Below, piece after piece: positions 23,145 through 47,245 of a stretch of 64,000 bases of DNA (position 1 is its first letter; each line of letters starts with the position of its first letter). Both the position numbers and the translations under genes were made by a program. The notes under the pieces are model-generated. The model had not been told where the DNA came from. It worked only from the letters and a program-made list of their open reading frames with translations, and searched no databases. Source of the DNA: a virus; IMG/VR virus record IMGVR_UViG_3300025645_000042, positions 55,102 to 119,101 of that record; one strand, given 5' to 3'.

Positions 23145-23885
23145 TTATAAGTAGCCCTTATCAATTTTATCTGTTTTGGTTAGTTCATATATGGTTTTAT
23201 ACCTTCTCATAGCAATTCTAATATCTTTAGTTACTAATCCAGTATATTCTCTAATGGTACCAAGAATACTATTCTTGTTAAATTTGGAACTCTTATTAAG
23301 AGTTGCAAATAAAGTTTCCCAATCACCTAAGATATATAATAACGCTTCACCAACTTTACGTTCATTTTCTGTCATCTTCTTTTTCTCTATACCTTCTAAC
23401 TCTAATTCGTTTTGAATTTCCCCACACATAGTATCAATTAAATCGCTTAAACCATAATCGGTTTCTGATAAATGGTATACATACTCATCTTTTTCATGTA
23501 CCTTACCTAAAGATTTTTGGAAATCTACAGTTTGGTTAATGTATTTATCATCTTTGATTAATAAACCTAAAATGTAATGTTTACATATAGTCCCATAATA
23601 AGAAAACGCTCTTTTACCTTTTTCTGGTTTGAATTTATCTGCTTTAAGGATAAGATAAGAGAGAGTATCGCTGTGTAAATTCTCAAAAGAGTAGTCTTTT
23701 CTATATAATTTATAACGTCTAATAATAGACTCAATCATTATATTAAAGGCATGTCTAAGATGTTTATTATAAATTCGATTTCTTTCTATTTCATCACCTT
23801 CATTTAAAAATCTAACCACAGCTGCTTCTTGTTCGGGGCCGAAATATAAACCATTTGTTCTTTTTCGTCCTCTTTTTTTAGTCAT
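23145..23885 (-). CDS. Phage sigma-70-like factor (gp55-like late sigma candidate)
   Basis: Region-2-like segment LSYLILKADKFKPEKGKRAFSYYGTICKHY. Confidence 0.6.
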   Translation of the reverse strand: MTKKRGRKRTNGLYFGPEQEAAVVRFLNEGDEIERNRIYNKHLRHAFNIMIESIIRRYKLYRKDYSFENLHSDTLSYLILKADKFKPEKGKRAFSYYGTICKHYILGLLIKDDKYINQTVDFQKSLGKVHEKDEYVYHLSETDYGLSDLIDTMCGEIQNELELEGIEKKKMTENERKVGEALLYILGDWETLFATLNKSSKFNKNSILGTIREYTGLVTKDIRIAMRRYKTIYELTKTDKIDKGYL

Positions 23886-24688
23886 TAAGATTTGTCTATT
23901 TTTTCATAAGAAATATTTCTATCATTTACATGAAAATATTCTTTTTTTGCTAAAGATAACCACCATCTAGATTCATCTATTGATAATTCTTTTTTGTATT
24001 GGTCAAATAGGCTACCTTCCCTGTTATTAATATGTTTATACCCTAATTTAGGAATAACCATAACTTTACATGATTTAAATGTGAATCTTAATAAGAATTC
24101 ATTTATGAAACTTAGTTTTATACTTTCTTTCATACCACCATATTCCTTATAAGCATCTTTTAACATTGCCATACCATCAATATTAAAATTTTGATATCTT
24201 AATAATGCAGCATTATCTAGAACCCCCATTTCATCTGAGAATTGTGAAGCCCATACAGCTTCATTAGTAAACCCTAAAAAATTACCAACTGGGTCAACAT
24301 CTAGAATCATAGGTAAGAAAATTTGAACATTTGGATAGGCTTCTTTATACTTAATAACATTACTAATCCAAATATCACCCAATTCATCATCTTGTTCTAA
24401 GAAAACAAACCATTTGGTTTTACAATTTTTAACTCCAATGTTTAATTGTGATGCAAAATCGGTTGAAGACTTATGAGTGACAATATCAAAGATTAACCCA
24501 TCTTCTTGATTTATTATTTTAGTTAATAAATCTTGGTCATCTTTTCTATCTCCAACCACAAACATTACTGAATCTGGTTTTACTCGTTGTCTAGCTATTG
24601 ATTTTATGGCGTTTATTAATAATCCCTCATCTATATCATAAATAGGGATTATTACCGTAATATCTGTTTTTTCTTTTTTATTGCTCAT
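23885..24688 (-). CDS. Glycosyltransferase, GT-A/family 2-like
   Basis: ITVIIPIY, LNIGVKNCKTKWFVFLEQDD. Confidence 0.8.
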   Translation of the reverse strand: MSNKKEKTDITVIIPIYDIDEGLLINAIKSIARQRVKPDSVMFVVGDRKDDQDLLTKIINQEDGLIFDIVTHKSSTDFASQLNIGVKNCKTKWFVFLEQDDELGDIWISNVIKYKEAYPNVQIFLPMILDVDPVGNFLGFTNEAVWASQFSDEMGVLDNAALLRYQNFNIDGMAMLKDAYKEYGGMKESIKLSFINEFLLRFTFKSCKVMVIPKLGYKHINNREGSLFDQYKKELSIDESRWWLSLAKKEYFHVNDRNISYEKIDKS

Positions 24689-25787
24689 TTTTAATTTCTT
24701 TTTCTTCTTTTATTTTTAACAATGCTTCAAATTCTGACCTTCTATTAGCAATTAATTGAGTATAAACATCTTCAATTACTTTATTTTGCTTTTCTTCAGT
24801 GTATTGGCCCTTAGAAGAATTTGCACCATCGATTAATCCTTGTGGTACATTATCTTCCAACCATACTCTCATAAATTCTGAGATTAAATTAGGGATTGCT
24901 AATTCATTATTTGTCCAAACACCATTATCTTTTAATTGAATTTGTTGTTGGGTTGAATTTTCAGATTCCATCCATTCAGGAATCATAGTTGGAATTTTAC
25001 CAATTACTGGTGTTTCACATTGAATAGCTTCTAATGGGAAAGTACCGAAACTTGATTCATCATCAACCCAAACTGCTAAACATGATTCACCTAACGTTTC
25101 TGCAAACGTCTTTCTTGGTAAACCCCTAAGCTCTCTAAATGTAATCCATTTATACATTGGGAATTGTAAATAAAAAGACTTAACAATTTTAAGTGCCGTC
25201 TTTTGGTCTCTAGTTAAAATAGAAATAATTGGTTTTTTTATTTTAGTAGTTGGTTTAAAATAATCTGGGATTGATATTGGCACTATGTGTGTATCAATAT
25301 TTGGGAATAAATCTTTAATATAATCCACTTGTTTTTGTGATGTGGTGATAACATCCCTAAAACCAAAACTTAAATCCCATCTATTGCCAATTCCTAATAA
25401 TTCTAAAATATAACTATATGATTGGCACATGACAATTTTCTTAGAATTGAATTCTTTAACTTGTTCCATAACATTAGCAAAAATCTCAGGAATTATAATA
25501 TAATCAATTGCAGTGAGATTTAGGTTTTGTGCCTCAATTGAAACGTGGGGTAGTTTTGTATATTCCTCCCCTAACCATTCACCAACACCGTGATAATCAT
25601 TTTTCTCATGCATGATATACGCTTTAAATCCTAAATCATTTAAGACCTTAACGTGTTGGTATATGTTTGCTACACCAGCGGTTGCATTACCTTTAGTATC
25701 TAGTACAAAAAAGTATAGCCCAAAATCTTTATTATCAATTTTCTCTATAAACTCTACTACTTTAACTTGTTTTTCTTTATTTTCCAT
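24678..25787 (-). CDS. Glycosyltransferase, GT-B-like
   Basis: AGVANIYQH, and C-terminal ESSFGTFPLEAIQCETPVIG (EX7E-like). Confidence 0.7.
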   Translation of the reverse strand: MENKEKQVKVVEFIEKIDNKDFGLYFFVLDTKGNATAGVANIYQHVKVLNDLGFKAYIMHEKNDYHGVGEWLGEEYTKLPHVSIEAQNLNLTAIDYIIIPEIFANVMEQVKEFNSKKIVMCQSYSYILELLGIGNRWDLSFGFRDVITTSQKQVDYIKDLFPNIDTHIVPISIPDYFKPTTKIKKPIISILTRDQKTALKIVKSFYLQFPMYKWITFRELRGLPRKTFAETLGESCLAVWVDDESSFGTFPLEAIQCETPVIGKIPTMIPEWMESENSTQQQIQLKDNGVWTNNELAIPNLISEFMRVWLEDNVPQGLIDGANSSKGQYTEEKQNKVIEDVYTQLIANRRSEFEALLKIKEEKEIKNEQ

Positions 25788-25789
25788 TT

Positions 25790-26158
25790 TTAATCAACTT
25801 TTCTTAATATATTATAAAAAACTAACGTGTTGAATGCTAGTTTAAATCTTAGTGACATTTTTTTTAAATTCCTAGAACCTAATGCACTATCAAAATCCTC
25901 TGAATTAAGTTCAGATGCCTGTCCTAAATCCTCAATAAAATTCCTGATGATTTCAAACTTAACACCGTTAACTTCTAGTTGTTTGATATTATCACTTGTA
26001 ATAATTTCTGTTGAAATTACTTTACCTTTAGCGTCTAATGTTTCAGTAACACTTTTTAACTTTTCAATTTTATCTTTACCAATTTTTTTATCTATGATTA
26101 AAAAGTCATCTAATACTTCAAAATCAATATAATATAAATCACCGAATATTTCAATCAT
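25790..26158 (-). CDS. Hypothetical protein
   Basis: 122-aa ORF in the operon. Confidence 0.5.
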   Translation of the reverse strand: MIEIFGDLYYIDFEVLDDFLIIDKKIGKDKIEKLKSVTETLDAKGKVISTEIITSDNIKQLEVNGVKFEIIRNFIEDLGQASELNSEDFDSALGSRNLKKMSLRFKLAFNTLVFYNILRKVD

Positions 26159-26729
26159 GCTTTATTATTTCATTAAATTTATTTTCGTCTTCTATAAATT
26201 CCAAGATTGTATCTAATTCAAAATCAGCCTCAATCTTTTTATTATAACTGGCGTTTATTTTAACTGAAATTTTACCTTCAGGTTTACTTTCCAATGCTAT
26301 TGGATTTGCCGTTACCAATAAATCTACATTATCCCACATCTTAGTGGTATCACTCAAGAATTTAATTGAATCACCTGTGAACCCTAACTTTGAAAGAAAG
26401 AATAATGTTGATGGTCTACTCTTATGCGCATCTCGACTTAAAATAATAATCTCATGTTCTTCATAATCATTAATATCTGAAATAAAACGATTAAGTTTCG
26501 GGATAATATTATTGTGTAATTGGTCTGCGTGTGCGAAAATCTCCATAGGAGATTCGCTGTATAAAAATTCATTTAGTTTTTTTTCACTATCGAATTTAAA
26601 GTACTTAACTAAATCAAAATCTTCTATATCTACACCTTCCATGTTCTCACCATAGTATTTTGTGTAGACATATTTTAATTGCCCAATAAAGTCTCTTATC
26701 ACTTCATCTAATGTTATTCCTATTCTCAT
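26151..26729 (-). CDS. HAD-family 5'(3')-deoxyribonucleotidase-like protein with a degenerate motif I
   Basis: IGITLDEVIRD, where the first Asp of DxD is replaced by Thr. Confidence 0.55.
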   Translation of the reverse strand: MRIGITLDEVIRDFIGQLKYVYTKYYGENMEGVDIEDFDLVKYFKFDSEKKLNEFLYSESPMEIFAHADQLHNNIIPKLNRFISDINDYEEHEIIILSRDAHKSRPSTLFFLSKLGFTGDSIKFLSDTTKMWDNVDLLVTANPIALESKPEGKISVKINASYNKKIEADFELDTILEFIEDENKFNEIIKHD

Positions 26730-26777
26730 AATATAATTTTACATAAATTAAATTTAAAGTAAATAAAAAAGTGAAGA

Positions 26778-27518
26778 TTATTCCTTTTCATTTAAATCAT
26801 CACCTCTTTTATAGTTATTAACGATTTTTGTAATCAAAGGATTACGAACAATATCATTCTCATCAAATTCAAAGAAGCCTATTTCGGAAATATTATTATG
26901 TCTATTCATAGCATCATATAAACCACTTTGTCGGCTATCACGATATTTATCAGATTGGTCCATATCACCAGAAACAACATACTTAGAATTATACCCAATT
27001 CTAGTTAATAGCGTTTTCATTTGAGAAGGTGACATGTTTTGTGCCTCTTCCATTAGTAATACTGAATTGTCGATTGATTTCCCTCTTATGAAACCTAAAG
27101 GTTCCACCATTAATTCTTCTGACTCTTCTAATTGAAGTCTATTCTCTTTACCGATAATTTTATCCACTATATCAATAGATGATGCCATATAAGGTGCCAT
27201 CTTTTCTTTTAAATCACCTGGTAAAAATCCTAGATTCTCTTCAGCCTCAATGGCTGGTTTCACGATTAAGATTTTATTATAAGAATTATTTGAGTCTTGT
27301 AGTAATTGTAAAGCTACCGCAATAGCTACATAAGATTTTCCAACGCCAGCTGGACCAGCACAAAAAGTGATTTCTTTTTTTCTAATTAAGTTAGCAAATT
27401 CTTTTTGTTTAGGGTTTTTACATTTTAAGGATACTTTTCTAGGTAGTATTTGATTTACTGACCTAGTTTTAATCGCAACACTTTTAGTCGTAGTTGCTTT
27501 TTGTTGTCTTTTTGCCAT
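26778..27518 (-). CDS. phoH: PhoH-family ATPase
   Basis: GPAGVGKS, LGFLPGDL.EKM.PY, IRGKSID...DEAQN-like EEAQNM, TRIG, GDMDQSD. Confidence 0.93.
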   Translation of the reverse strand: MAKRQQKATTTKSVAIKTRSVNQILPRKVSLKCKNPKQKEFANLIRKKEITFCAGPAGVGKSYVAIAVALQLLQDSNNSYNKILIVKPAIEAEENLGFLPGDLKEKMAPYMASSIDIVDKIIGKENRLQLEESEELMVEPLGFIRGKSIDNSVLLMEEAQNMSPSQMKTLLTRIGYNSKYVVSGDMDQSDKYRDSRQSGLYDAMNRHNNISEIGFFEFDENDIVRNPLITKIVNNYKRGDDLNEKE

Positions 27519-27522: not shown

Positions 27523-27553
27523 AAATGTGAGCCTGTTTGATAAGCTCACATTT
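27523..27553 (-). terminator. Hairpin/terminator just upstream of phoH
   Basis: aaatgtgagc-N11-gctcacattt, with a T run on the minus strand. Confidence 0.55.
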
Positions 27554-27581: not shown

Positions 27582-28616
27582 CTATTTAATCAAATTTTTA
27601 GGTGCTTTATTTTTATATTTTTTTTCTAAATCTTCTAAGCGATAATCTTCCATCATAAATTTACCATTTATAATTGGTGTCGCCATAAATTTTAAAACGT
27701 AGTGTCCATTGAATTCCACCACTTTATGGAAATTTTTAACTTCATAAATATATTCCATTCCATTTGCAGCACCAATTGTTTTATTGGTTATAAACCCCAC
27801 TTTTTCGATGTCTAAAATATCAGATGCCCTAGGATTTTTATTAATTTTCTTAATTTCACTAATTAATAACCTACTTTTCCGATTGAATTCATCTGGGTAC
27901 ATCGTGATATAGAACTCTAGTAATTTAGTTTCACCATCTACATCTCTAACAACTAATTTATTACAGTATTGTTCGATTTCAAATTTAGGCCTTATACTTC
28001 TATGTATCATGATATTTTTATCATTCTTCATACTAGCTACCATATCATCAAAACTAAGTTTAGCTAACGTTCTACCATCTTCTTTTCCTATTTCCACTTC
28101 AATATCTTCTCCAAATTCATTAGTTTCATATCTTACATTAATTAAATCAAACATTTCATTAGTTTCATCGAAAGTTTCAATTTCTTCATCGGTATGAACT
28201 TTTAATTTTTCATTACCAAAAGCCTCTGAAGTTGATTTAACGACCTCATTATTACTAACCACAAGTTCAACTGGATGTGGGTCACCTTTATCAACATTTA
28301 CCTTCCTAAGAATTTGTTTCTCATGTTCAGTAGTTTCAGTTATTGGTAAGTTATCCTCATCATATCCAATGATTTTGGTTTTAAGACTATCCGCAGCATT
28401 CAATACCTTATACATCCTCCATCTCATTTCCTTAACTTCCATTGTGAGAACACCCTTTAACATGTTATCAGCCATAGAACCTTGTTCCATTGTTTCATTT
28501 GAAGCACCTTCTTTACCTAAAGCGTCTGAGGCTTGATTTAATGATGATTTCTCAACTCTTGATAATGCTAATGAAAGCATTGCCATTTTTCTTTTTAGAT
28601 AAGTTGTTATATCCAT
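27582..28616 (-). CDS. Hypothetical protein
   Basis: 344-aa ORF with no recognised motif. Confidence 0.55.
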   Translation of the reverse strand: MDITTYLKRKMAMLSLALSRVEKSSLNQASDALGKEGASNETMEQGSMADNMLKGVLTMEVKEMRWRMYKVLNAADSLKTKIIGYDEDNLPITETTEHEKQILRKVNVDKGDPHPVELVVSNNEVVKSTSEAFGNEKLKVHTDEEIETFDETNEMFDLINVRYETNEFGEDIEVEIGKEDGRTLAKLSFDDMVASMKNDKNIMIHRSIRPKFEIEQYCNKLVVRDVDGETKLLEFYITMYPDEFNRKSRLLISEIKKINKNPRASDILDIEKVGFITNKTIGAANGMEYIYEVKNFHKVVEFNGHYVLKFMATPIINGKFMMEDYRLEDLEKKYKNKAPKNLIK

Positions 28617-29284
28617 TTTTCTAATTTATTTAAATCCATTGTAACATTTTCTGGTACATATGGTGGTCTTAACGTTCCTAATATATTAGGTTTAGTTTCT
28701 TTAGCTAAATTCAACATGGTTTTAGCCTTCGTACCAACATTTATTATTCCTATGGCACCTTTATTGATTAATTTAATAATTAACTCAGAAATGACATCCA
28801 CGTAATCTGCATTCGTATAATAATTGCCCCACGCTTTTTCATAGGGAAATGGTTTTGCTTTATGACTACATCTACATATTAAATAATCATTAGAATTTAA
28901 CATAATTAATTCATCTGCCAATACTTTTGAATATGCATACCATGAATTATCACACCTAGGAATATCTTCTTCCTTCGCAAAAAAGTTATTATTAGCATAT
29001 ACAAAATCACTTGATATGTGAATCAATTTAATATTGTGTTTATTACAATATTTTATTAAATCTCTAACAAAACGAACATTAACATCCATATGAGTGTCAC
29101 GTTCTTTTGAATAAGAGTCTGTATGTGCGATACAGTTTACTATTACATTATAACCTTTAGAAATTAAATGTAAATTATTTATATCAAAATTACCCCACTT
29201 ACGTGAGACAAAATCCCAATCAGTTTGTTTAACCAATTCGGAACCTAATAAACCATCACCTAAAACTAAAACTTTATAATTCAT
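28607..29284 (-). CDS. rmlD: dTDP-4-dehydrorhamnose reductase-like NDP-sugar reductase
   Basis: GDGLLG, HISSDFVY and Y..SK motifs. Confidence 0.75.
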   Translation of the reverse strand: MNYKVLVLGDGLLGSELVKQTDWDFVSRKWGNFDINNLHLISKGYNVIVNCIAHTDSYSKERDTHMDVNVRFVRDLIKYCNKHNIKLIHISSDFVYANNNFFAKEEDIPRCDNSWYAYSKVLADELIMLNSNDYLICRCSHKAKPFPYEKAWGNYYTNADYVDVISELIIKLINKGAIGIINVGTKAKTMLNLAKETKPNILGTLRPPYVPENVTMDLNKLEKWI

Positions 29285-30287
29285 TATTAAGTAAAATATT
29301 ACAAATGTATTTAGAAGCTAATCCATCACCATATGGGCAAATACCTTCTTCTATCTCATAATTTTTAATGTGTTCATTGAATGCATCTTTTAATGATGAA
29401 TAATGTGAAATTAAAAAACTGGATAAACCTAAAGCTTCTGGCCTTTCAGTTGTTTCTCTACAAACTAAACATTTTTTATTAAAAAAAGAACACTCTTCTT
29501 GGAGTCCTCCACTATCAGTAATAACTAATTTAGATTTAATTAACAACTTCATTAAATTATCGTGTGGTAAAGGGTTAGTTACCGTTAGATTTGTTAATAA
29601 ATGTCTATATTTTTGAACCTTTGGATTTGGGTGAATTGGAATTATAAAACTTAATTCTGGATGTTCCCCAGCTAAGTCATTAATTTCTCTAAACCAATTC
29701 GCAATATTATGATGATTCTCACGCCTATGCATTGTAACTAAAACAATGTTTTCATATTGACATATTTCTTTATAATGTATTAGATTATCTAAAACAGTAT
29801 TACCAACTACAAACACTTTTTTATGTATATTTTCTTTGGCTAAATTAATTTTACTTTGTTCTGTTGGACAAAAATGAATATCAGTTATAGTTGAGACCAT
29901 TCTCCTATTATTTTCTTCAGGAAATGGATTTAACTTATCATAAGTTCTTAAACCAGCTTCTAAATGTATAATTTTAATCTGTCTATTCATTGCTGAAATT
30001 GCTAACCCAAGAACTGAAGTTGTGTCTCCTTGAACTAGAATGTGAGTTACACCATCAAACACATATTCAGGAATTGATAAACAATTCTTTAAAATAGCAT
30101 TTAATCTATTTTCATCTTCAGATTCAAGCATTCTCCAAACATAATTAGCATTTTTAGGTGCTATATCTTCATGTTGACCAGTGAATAATATTTTATGTGG
30201 AATTAAATTCATTTTCATTTCCTCAATCAATGGTTTAATTTTTATATATTCGGGTCTGGTTCCGTATGTGACTAATATATTCATCAT
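29274..30287 (-). CDS. wecB: UDP-N-acetylglucosamine 2-epimerase (non-hydrolysing)
   Basis: GTRPEYIK, TGQH, QGDT, HLEAGLRT..PFPEE.NR, TDSGGLQEE, RETTERPE, PYGDG. Confidence 0.95.
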   Translation of the reverse strand: MMNILVTYGTRPEYIKIKPLIEEMKMNLIPHKILFTGQHEDIAPKNANYVWRMLESEDENRLNAILKNCLSIPEYVFDGVTHILVQGDTTSVLGLAISAMNRQIKIIHLEAGLRTYDKLNPFPEENNRRMVSTITDIHFCPTEQSKINLAKENIHKKVFVVGNTVLDNLIHYKEICQYENIVLVTMHRRENHHNIANWFREINDLAGEHPELSFIIPIHPNPKVQKYRHLLTNLTVTNPLPHDNLMKLLIKSKLVITDSGGLQEECSFFNKKCLVCRETTERPEALGLSSFLISHYSSLKDAFNEHIKNYEIEEGICPYGDGLASKYICNILLNNEL

Positions 30288-30967
30288 TCCACAAATTTTC
30301 TTAAATATTCTACATCCTCATTTGATAATCTTTTCCCTGTGATTTCGGATATGTACCATGTTGGTCTTAATTTACCCCCCACTCTATATAAGTGACCCAA
30401 ATCCATCACATGTTTATGTTTTGTCCCAAGTATTATCTTACCATCATTTTTCGCCACATCCCTTAATTCCCATTGCCAAGGACTTAAACCTAATTCAAAA
30501 TGTTTCATAAAATATGATGTTCTCCACATACCATACGAAATAGATAATCTGTAATCGGCATCTTGCCTTGTTTTAATCAAATTATCAGTATAATGACCAC
30601 CTTTATAATAATCTTTACAGTATGGTGTCATTTTAATATTAACCACATCTTTATTTTCATCCATTACTGTTTTAAATTCTTCTATCAAATCTAAATTAAT
30701 CTCATCCAACGTTACTACGTCATCACTACCATATATAAAATATTCATCTTTGAAGTCTTTAAAAAATTTATATATGTCATTGGTAAAAGATTGCGGTCCT
30801 GTATCAACCCCTAAGCTTATAAATTTCCAAGAACCCATATCAAATGTTGGTTGTTTAAAACCGAGTACTGTTACGTCTAAATCTTTACCACCGAATTTAT
30901 CCATGGTAAATTTATTTGCTTGAATTAATTTAAGATATTTATCACAAGTAGGGATTATTATTCTCAT
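30284..30967 (-). CDS. Glycosyltransferase-like protein (GT-A)
   Basis: IIIPTCDKY, YFIYGSDD, W...LSPWQWE pattern. Confidence 0.55.
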   Translation of the reverse strand: MRIIIPTCDKYLKLIQANKFTMDKFGGKDLDVTVLGFKQPTFDMGSWKFISLGVDTGPQSFTNDIYKFFKDFKDEYFIYGSDDVVTLDEINLDLIEEFKTVMDENKDVVNIKMTPYCKDYYKGGHYTDNLIKTRQDADYRLSISYGMWRTSYFMKHFELGLSPWQWELRDVAKNDGKIILGTKHKHVMDLGHLYRVGGKLRPTWYISEITGKRLSNEDVEYLRKFVE

Positions 30968-37353: not shown

Positions 37354-37357
37354 ATTT

Positions 37358-37999: not shown

Positions 38000-38004
38000 T
38001 TTTT

Positions 38005-38799: not shown

Positions 38800-39523
38800 G
38801 TTTTAAATAACCCCTATTAGTGTCAACTCCTAAGAATAAATTTAACCCAGTTCCTATATCAAAATATGTGTTTTCTTTTTCTTCTAAAAATAGTTTATGG
38901 ATTAAAACTTCACTTAATGATGAGGCTGAAAATAAAAATACATGGTCTTTAATATTATTATCTTTTACCCATTTAATGATTTCATCAGATATGTCAAAAT
39001 TGTTAATCATACAATTATTACCAACTCTAAAATCTTTTTCAACTTTAAAAGGTAATTTTTCCAAATTTAAAGTCTCGTTACCAATAAAAACAATTTTTTT
39101 ATCATTAAATAATGGAACTATTTCATTTGTAAACCTATTAAAATTACCATTTATAAAAAGGTTGGCCCAAGTTAAATGTTCATCGTCACCACCTCTAAGA
39201 TTTACTTGCCAATCAAAAGCCTCTTGACCTACACAACACCTACAACTAAGCCCCACAAAATAATTCTCATCTTTATATTTAAACGCATCTTTTAAAGCAT
39301 CATAAAAAAAATGATGTTTACTAGAATCAACTTCTTTATAATTTATTGGGTCATAAGAACCACTATTTCTTACCCCATCAATCTCATACCATCCATTCCC
39401 CAATTTAGTGGTTTTATCCATAAGGAGATACATTTCCCCATCAGAAAATCTACCATATGCGAAATTTTCATTAGCTTTTAATTTTTCTAAAAATAAATTG
39501 AAATGTCCTTCAAATGTTTTCAT
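38771..39523 (-). CDS. GT-D/DUF1792-like glycosyltransferase
   Basis: N-terminal FAYGRFSDGE and C-terminal YFDIGTGL. Confidence 0.55.
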   Translation of the reverse strand: MKTFEGHFNLFLEKLKANENFAYGRFSDGEMYLLMDKTTKLGNGWYEIDGVRNSGSYDPINYKEVDSSKHHFFYDALKDAFKYKDENYFVGLSCRCCVGQEAFDWQVNLRGGDDEHLTWANLFINGNFNRFTNEIVPLFNDKKIVFIGNETLNLEKLPFKVEKDFRVGNNCMINNFDISDEIIKWVKDNNIKDHVFLFSASSLSEVLIHKLFLEEKENTYFDIGTGLNLFLGVDTNRGYLKHGNHKICIW

Positions 39524-40287
39524 TTTCTTACTTTTTTAACTGTTTGCCAATCTTTATCTATTAATTGAGAAACGATACTATTTCTTAATCCAATATGATT
39601 TGAATGAGTTAAAGAATGTGCGTTTTTATCGTAACCCCAATTATTATCCCTTGCTGGTACGTTTGACCAACTTTCAATATCATTTGGATTATGTGCTGGT
39701 ACATAAGTTTTTAACCCCATATACTTTTGAGCCGCATAAGAGAAAAACATATCTTCACCATTATCCCAACTAGGTGGTTTTTCCATCCACATTACCTTAG
39801 CTGTTTCTTGTTTGAAGAACCAAGCATGACCCACTAAATCTACATATGTCTTTCCATCGTTATGTTGACCATTCCAACCGACTACTGTATTTGGTCTATA
39901 TGCTTTATTATGAACTATAATTCCACTACCACCTAAAATTCCATCTTCTTCATTAATACAATTCATACAGTTTCTTAACCAATCTTTACCACATACCACA
40001 TCATCATCAAACATCGCTATATATGGTGTTTTACATAAAAGAGGTAATGTAAATCTACCCCAGAATTTTGTATTATGACTGCAATGATAAAATTTAACAC
40101 CTTTACTCATATATTCAGCAATGACTTTCATCAAAGTTAATGAGTCTTCCATATCACTTTCACCTTCAACTTTATTAACCCAAATATGGATATCTTCAGG
40201 TAATACCAACCCTGTAGCTAATACAGCTTCAATTTGGGATTCCAATGTGTAAGGTCTTTTATAAACGTTTAAAATTACTGATATCAT
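39520..40287 (-). CDS. Glycosyltransferase, GT-A/family 2-like
   Basis: ISVILNVYKRP, YIAMFDDD, GEDMFFS. Confidence 0.75.
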   Translation of the reverse strand: MISVILNVYKRPYTLESQIEAVLATGLVLPEDIHIWVNKVEGESDMEDSLTLMKVIAEYMSKGVKFYHCSHNTKFWGRFTLPLLCKTPYIAMFDDDVVCGKDWLRNCMNCINEEDGILGGSGIIVHNKAYRPNTVVGWNGQHNDGKTYVDLVGHAWFFKQETAKVMWMEKPPSWDNGEDMFFSYAAQKYMGLKTYVPAHNPNDIESWSNVPARDNNWGYDKNAHSLTHSNHIGLRNSIVSQLIDKDWQTVKKVRK

Positions 40288-41141
40288 TCTGGTATATATT
40301 TTCTCATTTTTTTAATATTCATCTTATTTCCAGCTCTTAAGAAGTTAATCATCTCCTTACCTTTCAAACCAAAATAATCTTCAGCTGCCGCACCATAGTT
40401 ATTAAGGTTATTATTCACACTACTTGGTCCAACATAAGTTGTCAAAACATCTAATCCTAAACATTTAGCTTCAACAATAATTCTACAATACGTTTCTCTG
40501 GCCGCTGGAAAGAACACCAATTTAGAATACTTAGACATATCAGTTAAAAAACCTTCACGACCAGTACCATTTTGAATAAACCCGTAAGGGATTTCATTCT
40601 TCGTACAGTAATCAATAGCACCTTGAGAATTCTTAATCCAGTTGTTGGTGTTGTAAATACAAGCTTTACCATTCTTTTCCAAATTCTCATCATATAACCT
40701 TTCCATAAGTTTAAGGTCATCTTCAGACCATATGTTGGTCCTCATATTAATGAAATTTGCTTCAACCCCATTTTTCTTATAAACGTTTAAATGGTCGGCT
40801 GATTTAACAAAAACAGCTTTAGCATTTTTATATAAATCATAATTTTGTCTTAATTCCTTTGGGATGATATCATTTGGGTATCTCCATGGATGTCTTGATT
40901 GGAGGATTTTATAATCACACTCAAAAATTATATAATTAAATTTATATATTTGTGATACTAAATCTGGATGCATAAGTGATATGTTCGAAATAATATAGAA
41001 ATCATCATAACTAAAACCCGTAACTTCTCTTGATTTCCAAAATTTTAAATCAAAATGTTCAATAAGCATTTGATTACCAACTTCTGAACCACCATGTGGC
41101 ATTTCTGCATAACTAAAATCTGATATTAATATATTAGCCAT
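40284..41141 (-). CDS. Glycosyltransferase-like protein (GT-B)
   Basis: GGSEVG and C-terminal ETYCRIIVEAKCLG (EX7E). Confidence 0.6.
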   Translation of the reverse strand: MANILISDFSYAEMPHGGSEVGNQMLIEHFDLKFWKSREVTGFSYDDFYIISNISLMHPDLVSQIYKFNYIIFECDYKILQSRHPWRYPNDIIPKELRQNYDLYKNAKAVFVKSADHLNVYKKNGVEANFINMRTNIWSEDDLKLMERLYDENLEKNGKACIYNTNNWIKNSQGAIDYCTKNEIPYGFIQNGTGREGFLTDMSKYSKLVFFPAARETYCRIIVEAKCLGLDVLTTYVGPSSVNNNLNNYGAAAEDYFGLKGKEMINFLRAGNKMNIKKMRKYIPE

Positions 41142-41284
41142 TTATTACAATTTTAAATTCATTGTATAATTCTTCAGCAGAATAATACTTATTTTCTTTG
41201 ACCCAAACATATTTATTATATTCAAACCCATTTTCTTTAGCCCAATGTAATATGTTAACCGCCAACGCTGTTTCTTTTTCCATA

Positions 41285-42007
41285 TTAAATGACTTTAAAT
41301 TGTTTTTTTTTCATTTCATCCATATACTTCATTGGTGGTCTAGTCCAGTGACCCGATAACCCAGTCTTTTGCATTTGCTCATTTCTCCTTTTAGCTAACA
41401 TATCATATCTCCATAGAACATACTCCTTACCTAAAAACTTGTAATGAAGTAACTTGAATTCTGGTCTTTCTGAAAACTTACCATTCTGTGCTTTGAAAGA
41501 GTGAGAACCGATACCGAATTTAATATCCAGTTTTGGGTCAAAAATAATATTTTTACTCATTACCTCATAAACATCAGAACCATATTTAACTTTATTGGTT
41601 AATAACTCACCATCATATTCAGGAAATTCATCAGAATACATATCATGACCATCAATTTTGGGTACTGTTACACCGCTTTTTTTATACTCTTCCAATTTCT
41701 TTAATAGATTTGGGTGATATAAAAATTCATCACAATCACATACAATTACCCAATCAACACCTTTGGTCCTACTTTGTTTATATGCACTATTCCTAATATT
41801 TACTTGCTGAAATTCATCATACTTACCATCAGCATTTTGCCATTTTTTTACAACAACATTATCATATTCTTTATAAATTTCATCAGAATCGTCATCCGAC
41901 ATATTATCATAAACGTATATTTTTTCACAAAACAGTGAATAATGGTCTAAAGTGTATCTTAATATTTTAGCTTCATTCCAAGCTATTATATGTGCGTGTA
42001 TTATCAT
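41285..42007 (-). CDS. Glycosyltransferase, family 2-like
   Basis: AWNEAKIL, YDNMSDD, WVIVCDCDEFL, LHYKFLG. Confidence 0.8.
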   Translation of the reverse strand: MIIHAHIIAWNEAKILRYTLDHYSLFCEKIYVYDNMSDDDSDEIYKEYDNVVVKKWQNADGKYDEFQQVNIRNSAYKQSRTKGVDWVIVCDCDEFLYHPNLLKKLEEYKKSGVTVPKIDGHDMYSDEFPEYDGELLTNKVKYGSDVYEVMSKNIIFDPKLDIKFGIGSHSFKAQNGKFSERPEFKLLHYKFLGKEYVLWRYDMLAKRRNEQMQKTGLSGHWTRPPMKYMDEMKKKQFKVI

Positions 42008-42822
42008 ACTTCTATAGGTATTTCTAATTTATTTAACCACATATTAAGAATTTGCTCATTCGTAAATGGTGATACTTCATGTTCGGTTTCTTCATTACCG
42101 AAAAATTTAGTTCCAGTTGACCAACATTCGTCTTTAACAAGACATGCCACTTCACCAATTGATGAGTGATAAACCCTACCAATCATATCATACATTTCTT
42201 GTTTACTTTCGGTATAACCATATTCAATTATTTTTGGCGACATTAATAATGGTTTAACTTCTTTATTATAATAATGGTCATTACCTACTTTACCAAAAAG
42301 ATATATTTTAGTACACTTATCTTTTAATGCTCGTTGAATTGAAATATGTGTTTGTTTTCTACTTTCAATACTACCAACAATTCCAGCAACTTTATCAAGT
42401 TCTGGTTTATCTTTTTTCTCTAAGATATTTTTTAAATTCGGTATTATTGAATGTGGTCCAGAATATTTACTTAGATTATTTATGTGATAATTAGCATGTT
42501 CTTGGTGAAGAAAAATCACTTCATCCCAATATGGATTAACACCACCAACATCAAACCACCACTTTTCATGACAAGCCAATACAACTTTTTTAGCGTTAGG
42601 TCTTTCACCTAGTTTAATGAAATGTGTAATTACACTATCTTCTGGGGTTATATTTTTTAAAGCATCAACTGTATATAAAGCACCATTACATTTATTCAAA
42701 TGATATTGATGTGGTCCAAATAAAATTGTTTCATAGCCCATTTCATTTAATTTATTAGTTAAATTAATTAAAACAACGGTTGAGCCACCTCTTTCGCTAT
42801 ATCCAGTTATTATTTTTATCAT
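42004..42822 (-). CDS. Glycosyltransferase-like protein (GT-B)
   Basis: RGGSTVVLINL, IVGSIESRKQ, EVACLVKDEC. Confidence 0.6.
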   Translation of the reverse strand: MIKIITGYSERGGSTVVLINLTNKLNEMGYETILFGPHQYHLNKCNGALYTVDALKNITPEDSVITHFIKLGERPNAKKVVLACHEKWWFDVGGVNPYWDEVIFLHQEHANYHINNLSKYSGPHSIIPNLKNILEKKDKPELDKVAGIVGSIESRKQTHISIQRALKDKCTKIYLFGKVGNDHYYNKEVKPLLMSPKIIEYGYTESKQEMYDMIGRVYHSSIGEVACLVKDECWSTGTKFFGNEETEHEVSPFTNEQILNMWLNKLEIPIEV

Positions 42823-44336
42823 TATTTTTGTTTTTGTAATGTATTAGATGGCACATACATTTTTTGCATATAATTAATACTATTAGGCATTTCTTTGAAT
42901 GCGCTAACTAATTTATTAAAGTCTTTATTAAGAATATCTAAAAAAGCTTTATCTTTAGAAAAAACATGTGATAATTGAATAACCGAATCATTATCAACAT
43001 ATACATTTTTATTGGCCAAAGAACATTTAGTAGCAAAGTCTGATTCATATAAGAATTCTTCATAATCCAACCTAAACCAACCTTGTTTAAGCAAATTATC
43101 ATAAGTGGTCATAAAACAGAACCCTAAATTACCCAACGGTTCTTTCATAAGACCTTGGGTATATAAATAATAACTATTCATACCTTTTAGGTGATATTTA
43201 ATTTGAGTTTCATTTTTCTCATTACCAATAAGGGTTACGTGAATACCAGTAGATAAAATAGTTTCATCTCTGTTTAAAACTCTTGGAAATATACATCCAA
43301 AATTTTTATCTTTTAGGTAAACAGAAACGAATTTTTTAATTACATTGGTTTTTATGGAAACATCATCTGATAAAAACATAATTAATTCATCATTATCATT
43401 TATGAATTCATCATCCCACCTTAATACTGACAAGTTTTTATGTAATGTTTGAAATGAACCTTCGAATATTTTAACATTATCACTTTCCAATTCTTTAATA
43501 TTTTCAACTTCATCTTCATTAGCAATAATATTAACACTGTAATTATTATAACCACATTGTTTTATTTCCTCTAATCTTTCATTAATTAACCTCTTCTCAC
43601 CTGAACTTGATATAAAAATCTTTAAGTTAGGTGTTTTCTTTAATTGAATATCCTCTAATATATATTCAGGGGTAACTTTAATTTTATTAGGTAAGTTTGA
43701 AGCGAATTTTTCAGCAAATAACTTTCTATTAGAATCCCATTCATCATTTGTTTGACCAATTGATTTATGTGTAACCTTAACTTCAAAAGTAACACCTATT
43801 TTAACACCAGCTAAATGATTTCTGAAACAAAAATCAACTTCATAAAAATGGAATCCTTCAACGGTCTCATCAAAATCTTCTTTAATTCTACCCTTGTGTA
43901 CTGCAAAGAATAAACCATCAACCATTACGGTTTCAATTATTTCCCCAGCAAAGTTTCCAGAATATTTAGATTCTAATGTTTTACCTTGGTAAGAATGTTT
44001 AACAATACCAACCATTTTACTTTTATCGGCCCACCATTGACCACTAATATCTAAATCTGTAGTCCCAGCGATACCTAAAATACCATAATCAGTAGTTTCA
44101 AAACTCTTTAAAAGTTTTCTACCCCAACCATTCTTATTAAAGATAATATCATCATGACAAAAAACTACAATATCATTTGTAGCTTGTTTTAATCCTCTAT
44201 TATATGCTTTGGTTAAAGATTCGCCATTATTTATAATTTCGATTACTTCAATCTTATTTGCAAGACCTGAAGTCTTTCTTATGTGGTCGTAATGTTCTCT
44301 ATTCGACTTTCTTGTACAATATATTACTGTTATCAT
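42822..44336 (-). CDS. Two-domain GT-A glycosyltransferase
   Basis: SLTKAYNRG...VFCHDD, VDGLF, FHFYEVDFC; a second GT-A-like half contains FLSDD. Confidence 0.8.
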   Translation of the reverse strand: MITVIYCTRKSNREHYDHIRKTSGLANKIEVIEIINNGESLTKAYNRGLKQATNDIVVFCHDDIIFNKNGWGRKLLKSFETTDYGILGIAGTTDLDISGQWWADKSKMVGIVKHSYQGKTLESKYSGNFAGEIIETVMVDGLFFAVHKGRIKEDFDETVEGFHFYEVDFCFRNHLAGVKIGVTFEVKVTHKSIGQTNDEWDSNRKLFAEKFASNLPNKIKVTPEYILEDIQLKKTPNLKIFISSSGEKRLINERLEEIKQCGYNNYSVNIIANEDEVENIKELESDNVKIFEGSFQTLHKNLSVLRWDDEFINDNDELIMFLSDDVSIKTNVIKKFVSVYLKDKNFGCIFPRVLNRDETILSTGIHVTLIGNEKNETQIKYHLKGMNSYYLYTQGLMKEPLGNLGFCFMTTYDNLLKQGWFRLDYEEFLYESDFATKCSLANKNVYVDNDSVIQLSHVFSKDKAFLDILNKDFNKLVSAFKEMPNSINYMQKMYVPSNTLQKQK

Positions 44337-44350: not shown

Positions 44351-44608
44351 TTAATTTCTATTAATTCTTAATAGTAAGTTAAATCTCTTAAAATTTTCCA
44401 AATCTTCCATATCCCTAATTAAATCTTCATGGAAGATTTTACGTATCCTTTTGAAAGCTTCAGCGTCATAATCATTAATGAGTTTATCATTTAATTTTTC
44501 ATCAATTTCAATTAAACGAGTTTTATTAGATTTGATTGAGTCATTAATGAGTTTGATGATTTTTAAATTTTGTTGTAAATGAAATTCATCACTTTCTAAC
44601 GCATCCAT
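44351..44608 (-). CDS. Hypothetical protein
   Basis: 85-aa helical ORF. Confidence 0.45.
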   Translation of the reverse strand: MDALESDEFHLQQNLKIIKLINDSIKSNKTRLIEIDEKLNDKLINDYDAEAFKRIRKIFHEDLIRDMEDLENFKRFNLLLRINRN

Positions 44609-44609
44609 T

Positions 44610-44960
44610 TTATTTATCTTTTACAAAAATCCCATCAACCATTTTACCAGTTCTTTTTGAGATTACGTTATACGCTGATTCTAAACACTCTTCAATTGTT
44701 AATCCTTGCATCTTGGCTTGAATAATAAGAGTTACTAGAATATCACCAATGGCATCTTTTATTTCAAATTTAGTGTTTTTTAACTCACCATTTTCATCAA
44801 TGAATTCTTCTTCACCAGCATATTGAGCTGTGATGGCATCTGATAATTCTTCAATTTCTTCAACAGTTTTACTATGTTGAGAAAACGGAGTCGCTTTACT
44901 CATAATACCCTTATCTTTAGCCCACTTTAATACTTTAATACTTAATTGTTTAAATGTCAT
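44610..44960 (-). CDS. MazG-like nucleotide pyrophosphohydrolase
   Basis: KTVEEIEEL...KDAIGDILVTL...CLESAYNVISKR.G. Confidence 0.85.
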   Translation of the reverse strand: MTFKQLSIKVLKWAKDKGIMSKATPFSQHSKTVEEIEELSDAITAQYAGEEEFIDENGELKNTKFEIKDAIGDILVTLIIQAKMQGLTIEECLESAYNVISKRTGKMVDGIFVKDK

Positions 44961-44961
44961 A

Positions 44962-45525
44962 TTATTTACCCAATTCCTTTTCTTCTAGAATAGAAATTCT
45001 AATAGCTAATTTTAATAGGTCACCAACTGTTGTGTTGTGCCATTCAGCTTTACTATCATCTAATTTATCATAATTAACGATAGCTGAACATTCTTCATCA
45101 GTTAATTGAATACCATTTGATAGTGCGTAATAAACTGAACGCTCACCAATATCCATAGATGCTAATTCATTATTGAATGTGTACATTCTACCTTTATTTG
45201 TTTTCCACCAATCATTAGTTTCTGGAAGATATAATTTAGCTTTACCTATTCCATGTAATAACCCTACTCTGAATAGAGAAGCTTCACTAACTTTTAGATT
45301 ATCTGAAAAGTTATTCTTATTGATTAAGAACATATGTTTTGTTACACGCAGCATATGGTCAATTAACCCACCTTCAAAACAATTATGTAAATGTAAGAAT
45401 GTTGATGCTGGTGCTTTTATAAAATCTTCACCTAAGAATGTTTGTAATTCTGGTGTCGTTGCACCGTATTTTTCTGCTGTTTCTAAATACTTTTTAGTAT
45501 TTGAGATAATTTTGTCTTTTGTCAT
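44962..45525 (-). CDS. HD-domain-like protein with a degenerate HD (HG)
   Basis: H..FEGGLIDH..RV and LLHGIGKA. Confidence 0.65.
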   Translation of the reverse strand: MTKDKIISNTKKYLETAEKYGATTPELQTFLGEDFIKAPASTFLHLHNCFEGGLIDHMLRVTKHMFLINKNNFSDNLKVSEASLFRVGLLHGIGKAKLYLPETNDWWKTNKGRMYTFNNELASMDIGERSVYYALSNGIQLTDEECSAIVNYDKLDDSKAEWHNTTVGDLLKLAIRISILEEKELGK

Positions 45526-45526
45526 T

Positions 45527-45994
45527 TTATTTATTTTTGCTATTTATTTGTTTATTATTAAAAATCATTTCTTTAAGTCTTTCCAATTCACTTTCTAATG
45601 TAACCCCTTTTGGTAATGATTCTCTAAAACTAATTTCATGATTATCCCAACTTTTTTTAATTTCATTTAGATAAAATTTAGTTTCTGGTGATAAACTATC
45701 ACCTTCTTTGTATTTATAAATTTTATTAGGCTTTGAATTAAAGCGTTTAACTTCATTGAGGGTTTTTATCAATATGAAATTACCATTACCAGCCAAATCA
45801 ACGTATTCTTCCTTTGTACAATAATTAATATTACCTTTAATTACATGATTAAATAAATCATTAAATCTATCTTTATTTACTTCTAAAAAAGCATATAAAG
45901 ACTCTTCTTTAGTTAATTTTTCTTTAGTTAATTTTTCTTTAGTAGAAATTTGATAGGTTAACCAATCTTTTATTTTTTTAAAAAAATTCTTCAT
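45527..45994 (-). CDS. Hypothetical protein with a 15-bp tandem repeat (KEKLT)
   Basis: ttctttagttaattt repeated at 45905-45943. Confidence 0.5.
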   Translation of the reverse strand: MKNFFKKIKDWLTYQISTKEKLTKEKLTKEESLYAFLEVNKDRFNDLFNHVIKGNINYCTKEEYVDLAGNGNFILIKTLNEVKRFNSKPNKIYKYKEGDSLSPETKFYLNEIKKSWDNHEISFRESLPKGVTLESELERLKEMIFNNKQINSKNK

Positions 45995-45998
45995 AATA

Positions 45999-46030
45999 CA
46001 AATATACTATTTTTTCTTGTTAAAAACAAG
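45999..46030 (-). promoter_or_regulatory. Bacteroidota-type housekeeping promoter
   Basis: Minus strand CTTG-N20-TATATTTG, 4 nt before ATG 45994. Confidence 0.6.
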
Positions 46031-47245
46031 TGTTTTATAATATTCAGCTCTTTCTTTTGTAACTACATCCATGGAGTATTTATCCTTAACGCTATTATAA
46101 AGATTTTCACCAAATACTGATATTAATTCTGGGTTTTGAATTAACTTTTTTAAATATTGATACCATTGTTTGTGGTTTCTATGTGAATCGACTAAGAATC
46201 CATTTTTAGTTGTGTCTAATTCACCACCTTTCATATAAGCATTTTCGATATCTATAGTATAAGGTCCATAGTTTTGAGCTATTAAAGCTTTTTTATGGAA
46301 ACCACTCTCAATTACTTTTAATTGACTCTTAACCAAGTTGAATGTGTGTTCGGCCAATGGTGCTAAAGAAATATCAAATAAATTATAATTATTCGCATAA
46401 CTACTAATTGGTTTAGTCCAAACTCTTCTATAAGGTTCATTCTCAATCCCATCGAATTCTTGTTCAACATATCTTTGTAAATGTTCTTTATATTCTGGAC
46501 TGATTATTTTATAATCACTGGTAAATATTTTTTCATAATCTACCCAAACAGTCTCATGTGGTTCAATATCCCTTTGTGTTTGTTCACCAGTATCTTTGTT
46601 AATCATATTAACCTTACCTCTAATATCAAAACCACATACCACAAATTGCACTTTATCTAATAAATTATCAGATTTTAATTTATCCGCAAGATTATTAAGA
46701 AGTTTTAAATCATGTAAATGTGAACTACCCCCAAGCCAACCAATTCTGATTTTATCAGATGGTTCTGGGTTTGAGATAAATTGTGTTTCTGTTGGGTCAA
46801 TTGCATTAGGTAATACAATTACATTTTTATTAACCTTTGAAATTTCCTTTGCGAAAATTGCTGTAGTGGTTATAATGTTTTGTGCTATTTTTAAATTATT
46901 TTTAATTTTAACATCTAACGCATTATTTTTAACAATATGATAAGCTGGATGTTTCATATCAGGTAACCAATAATCATCTAAATCCATTACAGTTATAATA
47001 CCTAATGAATGTATATGATTTAATAAAGTTTCCATTTGGTCATAATCACCTAAAGTTCTATGATAATGAATAATATCATATTGTTTTAACCATTCATTGT
47101 CATTTAACTTTGGTTCGTAATCTATATCTATATGAAATTCATCTGGGAAAAGATTTTCCAAATGTATGTGAGGTTTGGTTGACCTATAATAACTTACTCC
47201 AGTTCGGTCACTAGGCACTACTAAAACTTTAATTTTCTTACTCAT
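46007..47245 (-). CDS. Glycosyltransferase, GT-B/family 4-like
   Basis: DLDDYW, RIGWLGGSSH..DL, FDISLAPL....FN..KSQLKVIESG. Confidence 0.85.
   Translation of the reverse strand: MSKKIKVLVVPSDRTGVSYYRSTKPHIHLENLFPDEFHIDIDYEPKLNDNEWLKQYDIIHYHRTLGDYDQMETLLNHIHSLGIITVMDLDDYWLPDMKHPAYHIVKNNALDVKIKNNLKIAQNIITTTAIFAKEISKVNKNVIVLPNAIDPTETQFISNPEPSDKIRIGWLGGSSHLHDLKLLNNLADKLKSDNLLDKVQFVVCGFDIRGKVNMINKDTGEQTQRDIEPHETVWVDYEKIFTSDYKIISPEYKEHLQRYVEQEFDGIENEPYRRVWTKPISSYANNYNLFDISLAPLAEHTFNLVKSQLKVIESGFHKKALIAQNYGPYTIDIENAYMKGGELDTTKNGFLVDSHRNHKQWYQYLKKLIQNPELISVFGENLYNSVKDKYSMDVVTKERAEYYKTLVFNKKK

Follow-up and report, generated by a model that had tools for sequence, protein, structure and literature searches.

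We conclude that the DNA analyzed here, a window of 64,000 nucleotides (nt) that covers positions 55,102 to 119,101 of IMG/VR virus record IMGVR_UViG_3300025645_000042, carries a glycan synthesis island of ~24 kb (window positions 23145 to 47323, minus strand). Four conserved glycosyltransferases (GTs) frame a cassette of transferase, sugar synthesis, and tailoring genes, and there is strong support from gene content for the exchange of this cassette between related phages by recombination. The glycan is probably assembled in the cytoplasm by soluble enzymes. The best single reading, to which we would give close to but short of an even chance, is that the acceptor is a virion protein or another protein of the phage.

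Every gene between 23145 and 47245 lies on the minus strand, and most are translationally coupled. This agrees with an earlier reading made from the letters alone (the sequence-only reading), which had described a co-oriented block with about ten GTs, set between baseplate and sigma genes on one side and giant Ser/Thr-rich fibers on the other. Eight of these GTs are solid and two are tentative. The flanks are also as described, with a sigma-like gene (23145) and baseplate-side genes on one side and, from 49795, fibers with 26 to 28% Ser plus Thr on the other. In the order of transcription, the island comprises the following parts (genes are cited by their first window coordinate, and lengths are in amino acids [aa]).

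46007..47245 (-): frame GT-B, 412 aa; phrog_7162 (E 9e-39), viral GT1 clusters of the Atlas, and synteny; 59 to 62% identity in distant relatives
44351..45994 (-): non-glycan interlude with a 155-aa protein, an HD-type phosphohydrolase (44962-45525, PHROGs), MazG (44610-44960, Pfam), and an 85-aa protein
42822..44336 (-): frame GT2_5 (PF13712, E 1e-29); GT-A domain at residues 15 to 210 conserved, C-terminal ~290 aa variable
38771..42822 (-): semiconserved GT module with compact GT-B 42004, GT2_4 41285, compact GT-B 40284, GT2 39520, and the tentative GT-D-like 38771
30967..38799 (-): sugar synthesis and tailoring genes (Pfam, NCBIfam)
28607..30967 (-): tentative GT-A-like 30284, WecB 29274, and RmlD-like reductase 28607 (Pfam plus motif)
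27582..28616 (-): conserved 344-aa protein with no family or fold match, found in every relative examined
26778..27518 (-): PhoH-like ATPase (PF02562, E 2e-64), left boundary of the variable region
23885..26729 (-): left frame with NT5C/HAD-like 26151, 122-aa protein 25790, Agt-like GT-B 24678 (58 to 78% identity in relatives), and GT2 23885
23145..23885 (-): sigma-70-family-like gene (NCBIfam SigK, E 1e-5; 51 to 79% identity), the final gene of the island operon

The division into frame and cassette is based on a first comparison, by tblastn, with five relatives, one of which (G004) is a complete genome of 345 kb with terminal repeats. Conserved on the left are 20853, 21264, 22713, the sigma-like gene, the GT2, the Agt-like GT-B, 25790, 26151, PhoH, and 27582; conserved on the right are the N-terminal domain of the GT2_5, 44962, GT-B 46007, four small late genes, and the first ~180 residues of the giant fiber. 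Between these flanks, the stretch from 28.6 to 42.8 kb of the window stands where the five relatives have 6.6 to 10.6 kb of other genes. Pfam assigns GT10, GT11, a NodZ-like protein, and GDSL to the cassette of G001; GT6, GT11, two FkbM methyltransferases, and a sulfotransferase to that of G003; and a HAD-nucleotidyltransferase fusion, a WavE-like protein, and a GT-D-like protein to that of G004. The GT11 (E 2e-26) and GT6 (E 4e-48) genes of G003 are adjacent (L092:10492-11995), alongside the sulfotransferase and the two methyltransferases; blood-group epitopes of the H and A/B types are made by such a pair of GT11 and GT6 enzymes.

A wider sample of 68 loci was located via the 27582 family, and cassettes, taken as the region between GT2_5 and PhoH, were counted in 52 of them (clusters at ≥30% identity over 60% of the length). 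Their 533 proteins form 171 clusters and 32 distinct architectures, which are mosaics of recurring modules. Among 150 cluster representatives, Pfam finds GT2 (16), FkbM (11), epimerase (9), GT11 (5), DegT (4), GT25 (3), and GT10 (3), and GT4 as well. The nearest relative as judged by the capsid protein (92% identity) has only 6 of its 14 cassette clusters in common with the window, and the best match to the window's cassette (L175) reaches 9 of 16. The carbamoyltransferase and GNAT clusters occur, among the 52 sampled relatives, in the window only, and the GT module at 38771..42822 is found as a block also in L140, L143, L153, and L175. All homologs of cassette families in the complete relative lie within its island. 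The island is thus non-syntenic, or hypervariable, between related phages, and the swappable core that the sequence-only reading had placed between conserved flanks is recovered by comparative genomics, with the flanks kept across the 32 architectures of the 52 loci. The right boundary of the cassette falls inside 42822. A second, smaller variable spot with nucleotide metabolism genes lies between 42822 and 46007, where relatives carry DHFR, a GMP-reductase-like gene, an AAA ATPase, and dUTPase at the position of the interlude. The two frame GT-Bs, 24678 and 46007, are the most conserved genes of the region after that for the capsid protein. The objection that the locus could be a chimeric assembly was checked and is ruled out, as GC content is uniform (0.27 to 0.31) and the frame recurs in >50 viral contigs, including the complete genome.

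Pfam recognizes GT2-type domains in 23885, 39520, 41285 (GT2_4), and 42822 (the N-terminal domain of GT2_5). The GT-B 24678 was assigned with a profile built from it and five homologs, which matches PDB 8xsg (an AmGGT/Agt-type glucosyltransferase) at E 2e-10 over nearly the full length. The two cassette GT-Bs, 42004 (42004-42822) and 40284 (40284-41141), both on the minus strand, are compact, at 272 and 285 aa against ~350 to 400 aa for typical GT4 enzymes. Their AlphaFold2 models, made from small alignments, have mean confidence (pLDDT) values of 85 and 78.5, and the top Foldseek matches of both are all GT4-type enzymes (E 7e-9 and 4e-6). The assignment of 38771 as GT-D-like is tentative (NCBIfam E 0.09), with a match of its G004 homolog to PF22882 at 8.5e-4; that of 30284 as GT-A-like is tentative too, with an N-terminal GT-A-like strand and a DD motif as its only such features and no match in database searches. 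For 42822, similarity in relatives is confined to the first 43%, and its C-terminal part had no match in searches. A relationship of this C-terminal half to the two compact GT-B families was considered and rejected, as was one between 24678 and 46007; hhalign shows no relation in either case. Sequence-profile searches of the PDB gave nothing useful for 46007, 27582, 42004, 40284, 30284, or the C-terminal half of 42822.

In metagenomes, the 24678 family comprises >4000 clusters at 90% identity, and 200 clusters at 50% identity with E ≤ 1e-30; 24678 has no tblastn match among isolated phages. Among 185,579 species genomes, the family has a single match, at 57% identity, on L185 (PLXT01000052.1), a 103-kb contig binned to a Methanobacterium metagenome-assembled genome (MAG); this is probably a mis-binned phage contig of the lineage described here. 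In the phage search, 46007 matches only an uncultured phage of 735 kb, plus, weakly, some Klebsiella phages, and the neighborhood of the match in the 735-kb phage has nothing else in common with the window. Megablast of the island block against 50,697 phage records returned zero matches.

The sugar synthesis and tailoring genes encode GMD (30967, Pfam E 5e-116), the UDP-GlcNAc 2-epimerase WecB (29274, E 1e-68), a hexapeptide acyltransferase (32539), a NodU/CmcH-type carbamoyltransferase (33075), a FabG-like short-chain dehydrogenase/reductase (SDR; 35042), a FabH-like KAS III (35765), an FkbM methyltransferase (36706), and a GNAT protein (38005), all from Pfam, and a WbuC cupin (34625, NCBIfam). 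Most of the enzymes named from the letters alone are therefore present. Two need correction: the RmlD-like SDR 28607 is a short form of 225 aa, and the two DegT aminotransferases (31959-32549 and 37358-37999, minus strand) have 196 and 213 aa instead of the ~370 aa of normal sugar aminotransferases. This mini-DegT pair keeps the catalytic Lys and its flanking motifs and is without the C-terminal domain and ~40 internal residues. The short form occurs at 68% identity in G001 and was seen at 9 loci. We considered that the pair could be halves of one gene split by a 4.8-kb insertion and rejected this, as both genes span the same parts of the fold (about 36 to 108 and 176 to 250 of PseC or perosamine synthetase) and the catalytic Lys is present in each. 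Judged by these alignments, the two DegT-like genes are paralogous short forms.

The island also includes genes without an evident place in glycan synthesis (PhoH, MazG, the HD hydrolase, and the NT5C-like gene). The conserved protein 27582 shifts in position, lying at the left end of the island in the window, immediately following GT2_5 in many relatives, and separating the homologs of 40284 and 39520 in others. An Atlas search with it gave no usable match; from its distribution, a role as carrier or partner is conceivable, as is that of an unrelated passenger.

A central aspect of the island is its lack of membrane proteins. A hydropathy scan of the island proteins found no transmembrane span, none of the 533 cassette proteins of the 52 relatives has two or more hydrophobic segments, and the complete relative has no open reading frame (ORF) with more than four. 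PF02397 (Bac_transf) and PF00953 (Glycos_transf_4) are absent from the window contig (G000), G003, G004, and G005, and PF01943 (Polysacc_synt, Wzx) is absent from the window contig and three relatives, including the complete genome; the controls were positive. Integral-membrane enzymes of the type found in seroconversion modules (GtrABC, Oac, and Wzy-beta/Iap) occur neither in the island nor among the 533 cassette proteins. The statement, made from the letters alone, that the GTs show no obvious transmembrane anchor and that the locus has no wzx, wzy, ABC exporter, or polyprenyl-P transferase is thus borne out in the island, the 52 relatives, and the complete relative. As there is no initiating transferase, flippase, polymerase, or ABC exporter, we infer that the glycan is assembled in the cytoplasm.

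The island appears to be a transcription unit of its own, delimited by the following sites.

47298..47323 (-): terminator-like hairpin, 11 pairs plus T-run, the top-ranked site; closes the late unit that lies upstream (49734->47328), at the start of the island
47266..47294 (-): island promoter candidate, TTTACT-N17-TATACT; the -35/-10 arrangement is kept upstream of the 46007 homologs in G003, G004, and G005
27523..27553 (-): hairpin resembling a terminator, with 12 pairs and a T-run, immediately ahead of PhoH
26735..26765 (-): further candidate promoter in the TTTAC class, TTTACT-N17-TAAAAT, conserved in G001, G003, G004, and G005
23130..23168 (-): hairpin of 16 pairs at the island end (the palindrome is listed on the plus strand), followed by a late-type motif for 22713

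The three hairpins are the strongest terminator-like sites of the region. A generic sigma-70 scan gave counts no higher than those of shuffles in this AT-rich DNA, and promoter calls were limited to motifs conserved in relatives. Three promoter-like classes can be separated: an early Bacteroidota-type class, which is limited to the early region; the island class, TTTAC(A/T)-N17-TAnAnT; and a late class, ATATTTAT(A/T). The late motif lies 10 to 70 nt upstream of the terminase gene, 4842, 7020, 7866, 17610, 18261, 49192, the 49795 fiber gene, 57762, and 60559. Its overall count is not enriched (ATATTTATW, 18 observed versus 16 expected), and only its position is significant, with 10 of the 18 occurrences sense-oriented in upstream zones (p about 2e-5 after correction for AT richness). 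It is kept upstream of the fiber and 49192 homologs in G003 to G005 and of most 22713 homologs among the five relatives. These patterns suggest that the island, together with its sigma-like gene, is a pre-late unit whose expression precedes that of the virion proteins or is independent of it.

The source of the window is a jumbo phage of about 350 kb that is distantly T4-like, with a gp23-type capsid, and belongs to an uncultured lineage that is very common. Its viral contig has 119 kb, of which the window is the final 64 kb, and an estimated completeness of 33%. Genes for the large terminase, portal, prohead protease, and gp23-like major capsid protein lie in the window, as expected of a large T4-like myovirus, and relatives reach 345 kb. 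The nearest named relatives of the capsid protein are those of Microcystis phage Mel-JY01, Flavobacterium phage immuto, and Rhodothermus phage RM378, and uncultured phages of 484 to 735 kb are also among its relatives (36 to 43% identity in both cases); at 58 to 93% identity, the protein occurs on >598 IMG/VR contigs. The portal gene (window 1502-4792) encodes 1096 aa versus 687 aa in the complete relative, and the additional part has HNH endonuclease matches. Just downstream of the capsid region is a serine recombinase/DNA-invertase-like gene (phrog_125, E 2.5e-13; window 12618-13196, minus strand). The features outside the island that bear on its interpretation are the following.

G000:C1 about 1,400-35,400: Bacteroidota-type early promoters, ~45 copies of TTTG-N19-TAnnTTTG
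14293..15354 (-): extra nucleotide-sugar epimerase (phrog_540, E 6e-92), among structural-side genes and 8.5 kb outside the island
49795..64000 (+): giant repeat-rich fiber genes encoding 2361, 284, 918, 164, 346, and >631 aa, divergent from the island and with late-type promoters; candidate acceptors only

The early promoters precede small genes in the 55 kb of the contig upstream of the window and fit TTTG-N19-TAnnTTTG, which we take to be the Bacteroidota primary-sigma (sigma-A) consensus; the host is therefore most probably a member of the Bacteroidota. Homologs of the extra epimerase are located inside the cassette in several relatives. In the 2361-aa fiber (49795), only the first ~180 aa are conserved in relatives. 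Tandem repeats of 153 nt (51 aa) and 21/42 nt (7/14 aa), of the type T-A-S-G-x-x-S, occupy window positions 51100-53841 and 58286-59324, and one 153-nt repeat unit is present in two fiber genes, 49795 and 57762. The motif [ST]-G-x-[ST] was considered as a sequon and rejected, as its 100 occurrences in the 2361-aa fiber, versus 19 expected, are explained by these repeats. N-x-S/T is not enriched in the fiber.

Based on the predicted gene inventory, we propose that four soluble frame GTs (GT2 23885, Agt-like GT-B 24678, GT2_5 42822, and GT-B 46007) bracket a recombining cassette whose product would be an oligosaccharide with a decorated, perosamine-like 4-amino-4,6-dideoxyhexose. GMD would supply GDP-4-keto-6-deoxymannose, and the mini-DegT pair, nearest to PseC and perosamine synthetase, could aminate it at C4, if active despite truncation. 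The hexapeptide and GNAT enzymes may add N-acyl groups, for which the FabH/FabG-like pair probably provides a short 3-oxo- or 3-hydroxyacyl group, and FkbM and the carbamoyltransferase may add O-methyl and O-carbamoyl groups. WecB would provide UDP-ManNAc, the short RmlD-like reductase could yield a 6-deoxyhexose, and the cassette would contribute another five or six transferases. As acceptor, a phage-encoded protein that reaches the particle is most likely, and the neighboring giant fibers are the prime candidates. In this scheme, the task of the frame enzymes would be to prime a conserved acceptor, and each phage would owe its own "glycotype" to the cassette. The identity of the sugar, the timing, and the acceptor are all predicted from sequence.

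Several observations favor a protein of the phage as the acceptor. The lineage-wide absence of export genes, despite very diverse products, supports a phage-encoded acceptor in the cytoplasm. The high conservation of the frame GT-Bs, together with the near absence of the 24678 family from cellular genomes, supports an acceptor that is itself conserved among the phages. The homology of 24678 to a family that contains Agt supports a protein, as Agt homologs extend N-linked glucose on glycopeptide acceptors (PMC12159676). Precedents are the fibrils of Megavirinae (PMC10117803) and the virions of mycobacteriophages (Freeman 2023, as cited in PMC12619734). The sequence-only reading had already proposed cytoplasmic glycosylation of virion proteins; its soluble-only machinery and its swappable cassette stand, and its virion-protein acceptor stays putative. 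Other observations weigh against it. Pfam recognizes no protein-priming GT (NGT/GT41, GtfA/B, or Maf) among the island proteins, and the truncated DegT-like proteins may not be aminotransferases. The Ser/Thr richness of the fibers and their enrichment in [ST]-G-x-[ST] follow from structural tandem repeats. The late class, which precedes each of the flanking virion genes, is not that of the island: all 10 of its sense-oriented upstream motifs fall outside 23145-47245. This removes the argument of coregulation with virion genes; it neither proves nor excludes virion glycosylation. Adjacency to the fibers is not decisive, because receptor-modifying enzymes would likewise be expected beside receptor-binding fibers. 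Further, GT10, GT11, GT6, GT25, the WavE-like protein, WbuC, WecB, GMD, and many of the FkbM proteins belong to families of O-antigen or Bacteroidota O-glycan synthesis, and the cytoplasmic GTs of those pathways are likewise soluble.

These last points lead to remodeling of the host envelope, which we judge unlikely but by no means far-fetched. Under this explanation, the enzymes would extend or replace undecaprenyl-PP-linked glycans (O-antigen, capsule, or Bacteroidota O-glycan) on the cytoplasmic face, and host flippases and ligases would export them, for example, to block superinfection or to reduce the loss of progeny on cell debris. The enzyme families are typical of such pathways, pre-late expression suits a surface change that needs time, and a position beside the fibers is expected if enzyme and fiber must match one receptor. 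In Bacteroidota O-glycans, a variable outer part is built on a conserved core, which would mirror the layout of frame and cassette. Host surface modification is also the view favored in the literature for comparable islands, the host recognition clusters of pelagimyophages and the clusters of cyanophages (PMC7029224, PMC12801897). However, not one of the 32 architectures or 533 proteins includes a flippase, polymerase, ligase, or Gtr- or acetyltransferase-type membrane protein, nor does the complete relative. Known phage seroconversion modules consist of membrane proteins. In addition, Wzy and many Wzx proteins are substrate specific, and it is therefore hard to see how hosts would export such highly diverse phage glycans. 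The frame GTs, ~60% identical across phages with 58 to 92% capsid identity, imply one conserved acceptor, whereas host surface glycans vary.

The soluble-only machinery would also fit another cytoplasmic product, such as a glycan carried by a host protein, a small molecule, or a phage protein outside the virion, or a free oligosaccharide that acts as a decoy or as a sink for nucleotide sugars. The nucleotide metabolism neighbors (MazG, HD, NT5C-like, and PhoH, with dUTPase and DHFR in relatives) and the non-late promoter class are consistent with this, and the mobile but conserved 27582 could be a dedicated carrier or partner. We consider such a product improbable: there is no phage precedent for a pathway of 8 to 10 transferases with this purpose, and the strong diversification of the outer enzymes suggests a surface structure that is selected by other organisms. 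DNA is a far less probable target still, and we think very little of the chance that the GTs glycosylate modified bases of the genome, as in T-even phages and with TET-associated GTs. In its favor, DNA glycosylation by phage GT-A and GT-B enzymes is documented (Pyle 2024, as cited in PMC12619734), the pre-late operon has nucleotide metabolism neighbors, and the model of 40284 shows remote structural similarity to T4 alpha-glucosyltransferase, at rank 39. However, the sole thymidylate-synthase-family gene of the window contig and of the complete relative, one per genome, is a canonical ThyA, with the catalytic PPCH, Asn in the PFNIASY motif, and 259 bits to S. aureus ThyA, and neither sequence encodes a dCMP/dUMP hydroxymethylase. 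A search for Tet_JBP gave no match, a weak result, since its control likewise found nothing. A hydroxymethyl-pyrimidine substrate would thus not appear to be made by any known route, and with only a canonical ThyA present, glycosylation of DNA is unlikely. A DNA modification that combines ten transferases with acyl, methyl, and carbamoyl tailoring is not known. The ThyA itself (L098:13586-14683; G000:C1:48687-49784) has 365 aa, with two insertions relative to the 264-aa bacterial ThyA, and matches it in three stretches.

A bolder possibility is a complete, membrane-independent system for cytoplasmic protein glycosylation in very widespread jumbo phages of Bacteroidota, in which the four hallmark GTs would prime a conserved site on fiber or capsid and the cassette would build a strain-specific outer glycan. 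In this full form, the proposal is tentative, and we place it somewhat below an even chance.

Islands of this kind have already been published for large aquatic phages, and what is new here is a well-delimited member with a defined frame. The closest counterparts are the host recognition clusters of pelagimyophages and the "LPS/cell-wall" (lipopolysaccharide) clusters of cyanomyoviruses P-SSM2, S-SCSM1, and S-SCSM2R (PMC7029224, PMC12801897). As in the island, these are non-syntenic regions of large T4-like aquatic myoviruses, in or beside the tail fiber part of the structural module, with many GTs (GT2, GT10, GT11, GT25, and others), nucleotide-sugar enzymes, and no experimentally known function. 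The island differs in phage lineage and in host phylum, inferred to be Bacteroidota, and goes beyond those clusters in its four-GT frame over 52 relatives, its lineage-wide lack of membrane proteins, and its own promoter class. Moraphages are jumbo phages of aquatic, mostly freshwater, Bacteroidota, with genomes of 200 to 307 kb and four core GT orthogroups (PMC12619734). Compared by description, they have in common with the phage studied here a T4-like structural core, a sigma factor, PhoH, dUTPase, predicted Bacteroidota hosts, and four conserved GTs; these shared traits are circumstantial evidence that it lies within or beside the moraphage lineage. A swappable cassette and its transcription do not feature in that account (PMC12619734).

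Systems in which the acceptor is a protein offer other parallels. Megavirinae (Mimivirus) glycosylate their own fibrils with clade-specific clusters of 6 to 33 genes (PMC10117803) and, like the island, combine genes for rare, bacterial-type amino sugars with soluble transferases. However, these are giant viruses of eukaryotes that have no gene order in common with the island, and their acceptor has been shown chemically, whereas that of the island is predicted. Mycobacteriophages Che8, Corndog, and Myrna O-glycosylate their virions (Freeman 2023, as reported in PMC12619734 and PMC12801897), with phage-encoded GTs that are soluble, as in the island, and that modify, in the cytoplasm, the capsid and tail proteins of the phage itself. 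Unlike the phage studied here, they are siphoviruses of Actinobacteria, and the targets are the C termini of capsid and tail tube subunits. Mycobacteriophage systems also are not known to have more than a few genes or a nucleotide-sugar pathway, unlike the island. In two bacterial systems, giant fibrous proteins receive their glycans from soluble enzymes ahead of export or assembly: the NGT/Agt pathway of Actinobacillus (PMC12159676), to which 24678 is linked as a distant Agt/AmGGT homolog, and the pathway for serine-rich-repeat adhesins, whose Gtf3 and GtfC are matched (as is AmGGT) by the model of 40284 among many GT4 folds. Unlike both, the island has no priming enzyme of the NGT (HMW1C-like GT41) or GtfA/B type recognized by Pfam, and of the NGT/Agt pair it has the Agt-like partner only; likeness of 24678 and 40284 to the GT4 fold and family would not prove a protein acceptor.

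Reports of "LPS-like" gene islands in large phages of marine and fresh waters go back to the first cyanophage genomes, and their role is an old question. To this question, the present analysis adds a four-enzyme frame, a catalog of at least 32 interchangeable, membrane-free cassettes, a separate transcription class, and the lack of a route to glycosylatable DNA bases. The matter of the acceptor is narrowed to phage proteins versus host lipid-linked glycans, with 24678, 46007, 23885, and 42822 as the key enzymes. In addition, the cassettes supply many soluble fucosyl-, galactosyl-, and methyltransferases, as well as unusually small GT-B and DegT-like enzymes. If the glycans are on the virion, variable glycan coats would surround phage particles in the sea, with consequences for host recognition, evasion of defense, grazing, aggregation, and the counting and capture of particles. 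These phages would then have exchangeable particle "serotypes," analogous to the O-antigens of bacteria and the fibrils of Mimivirus.

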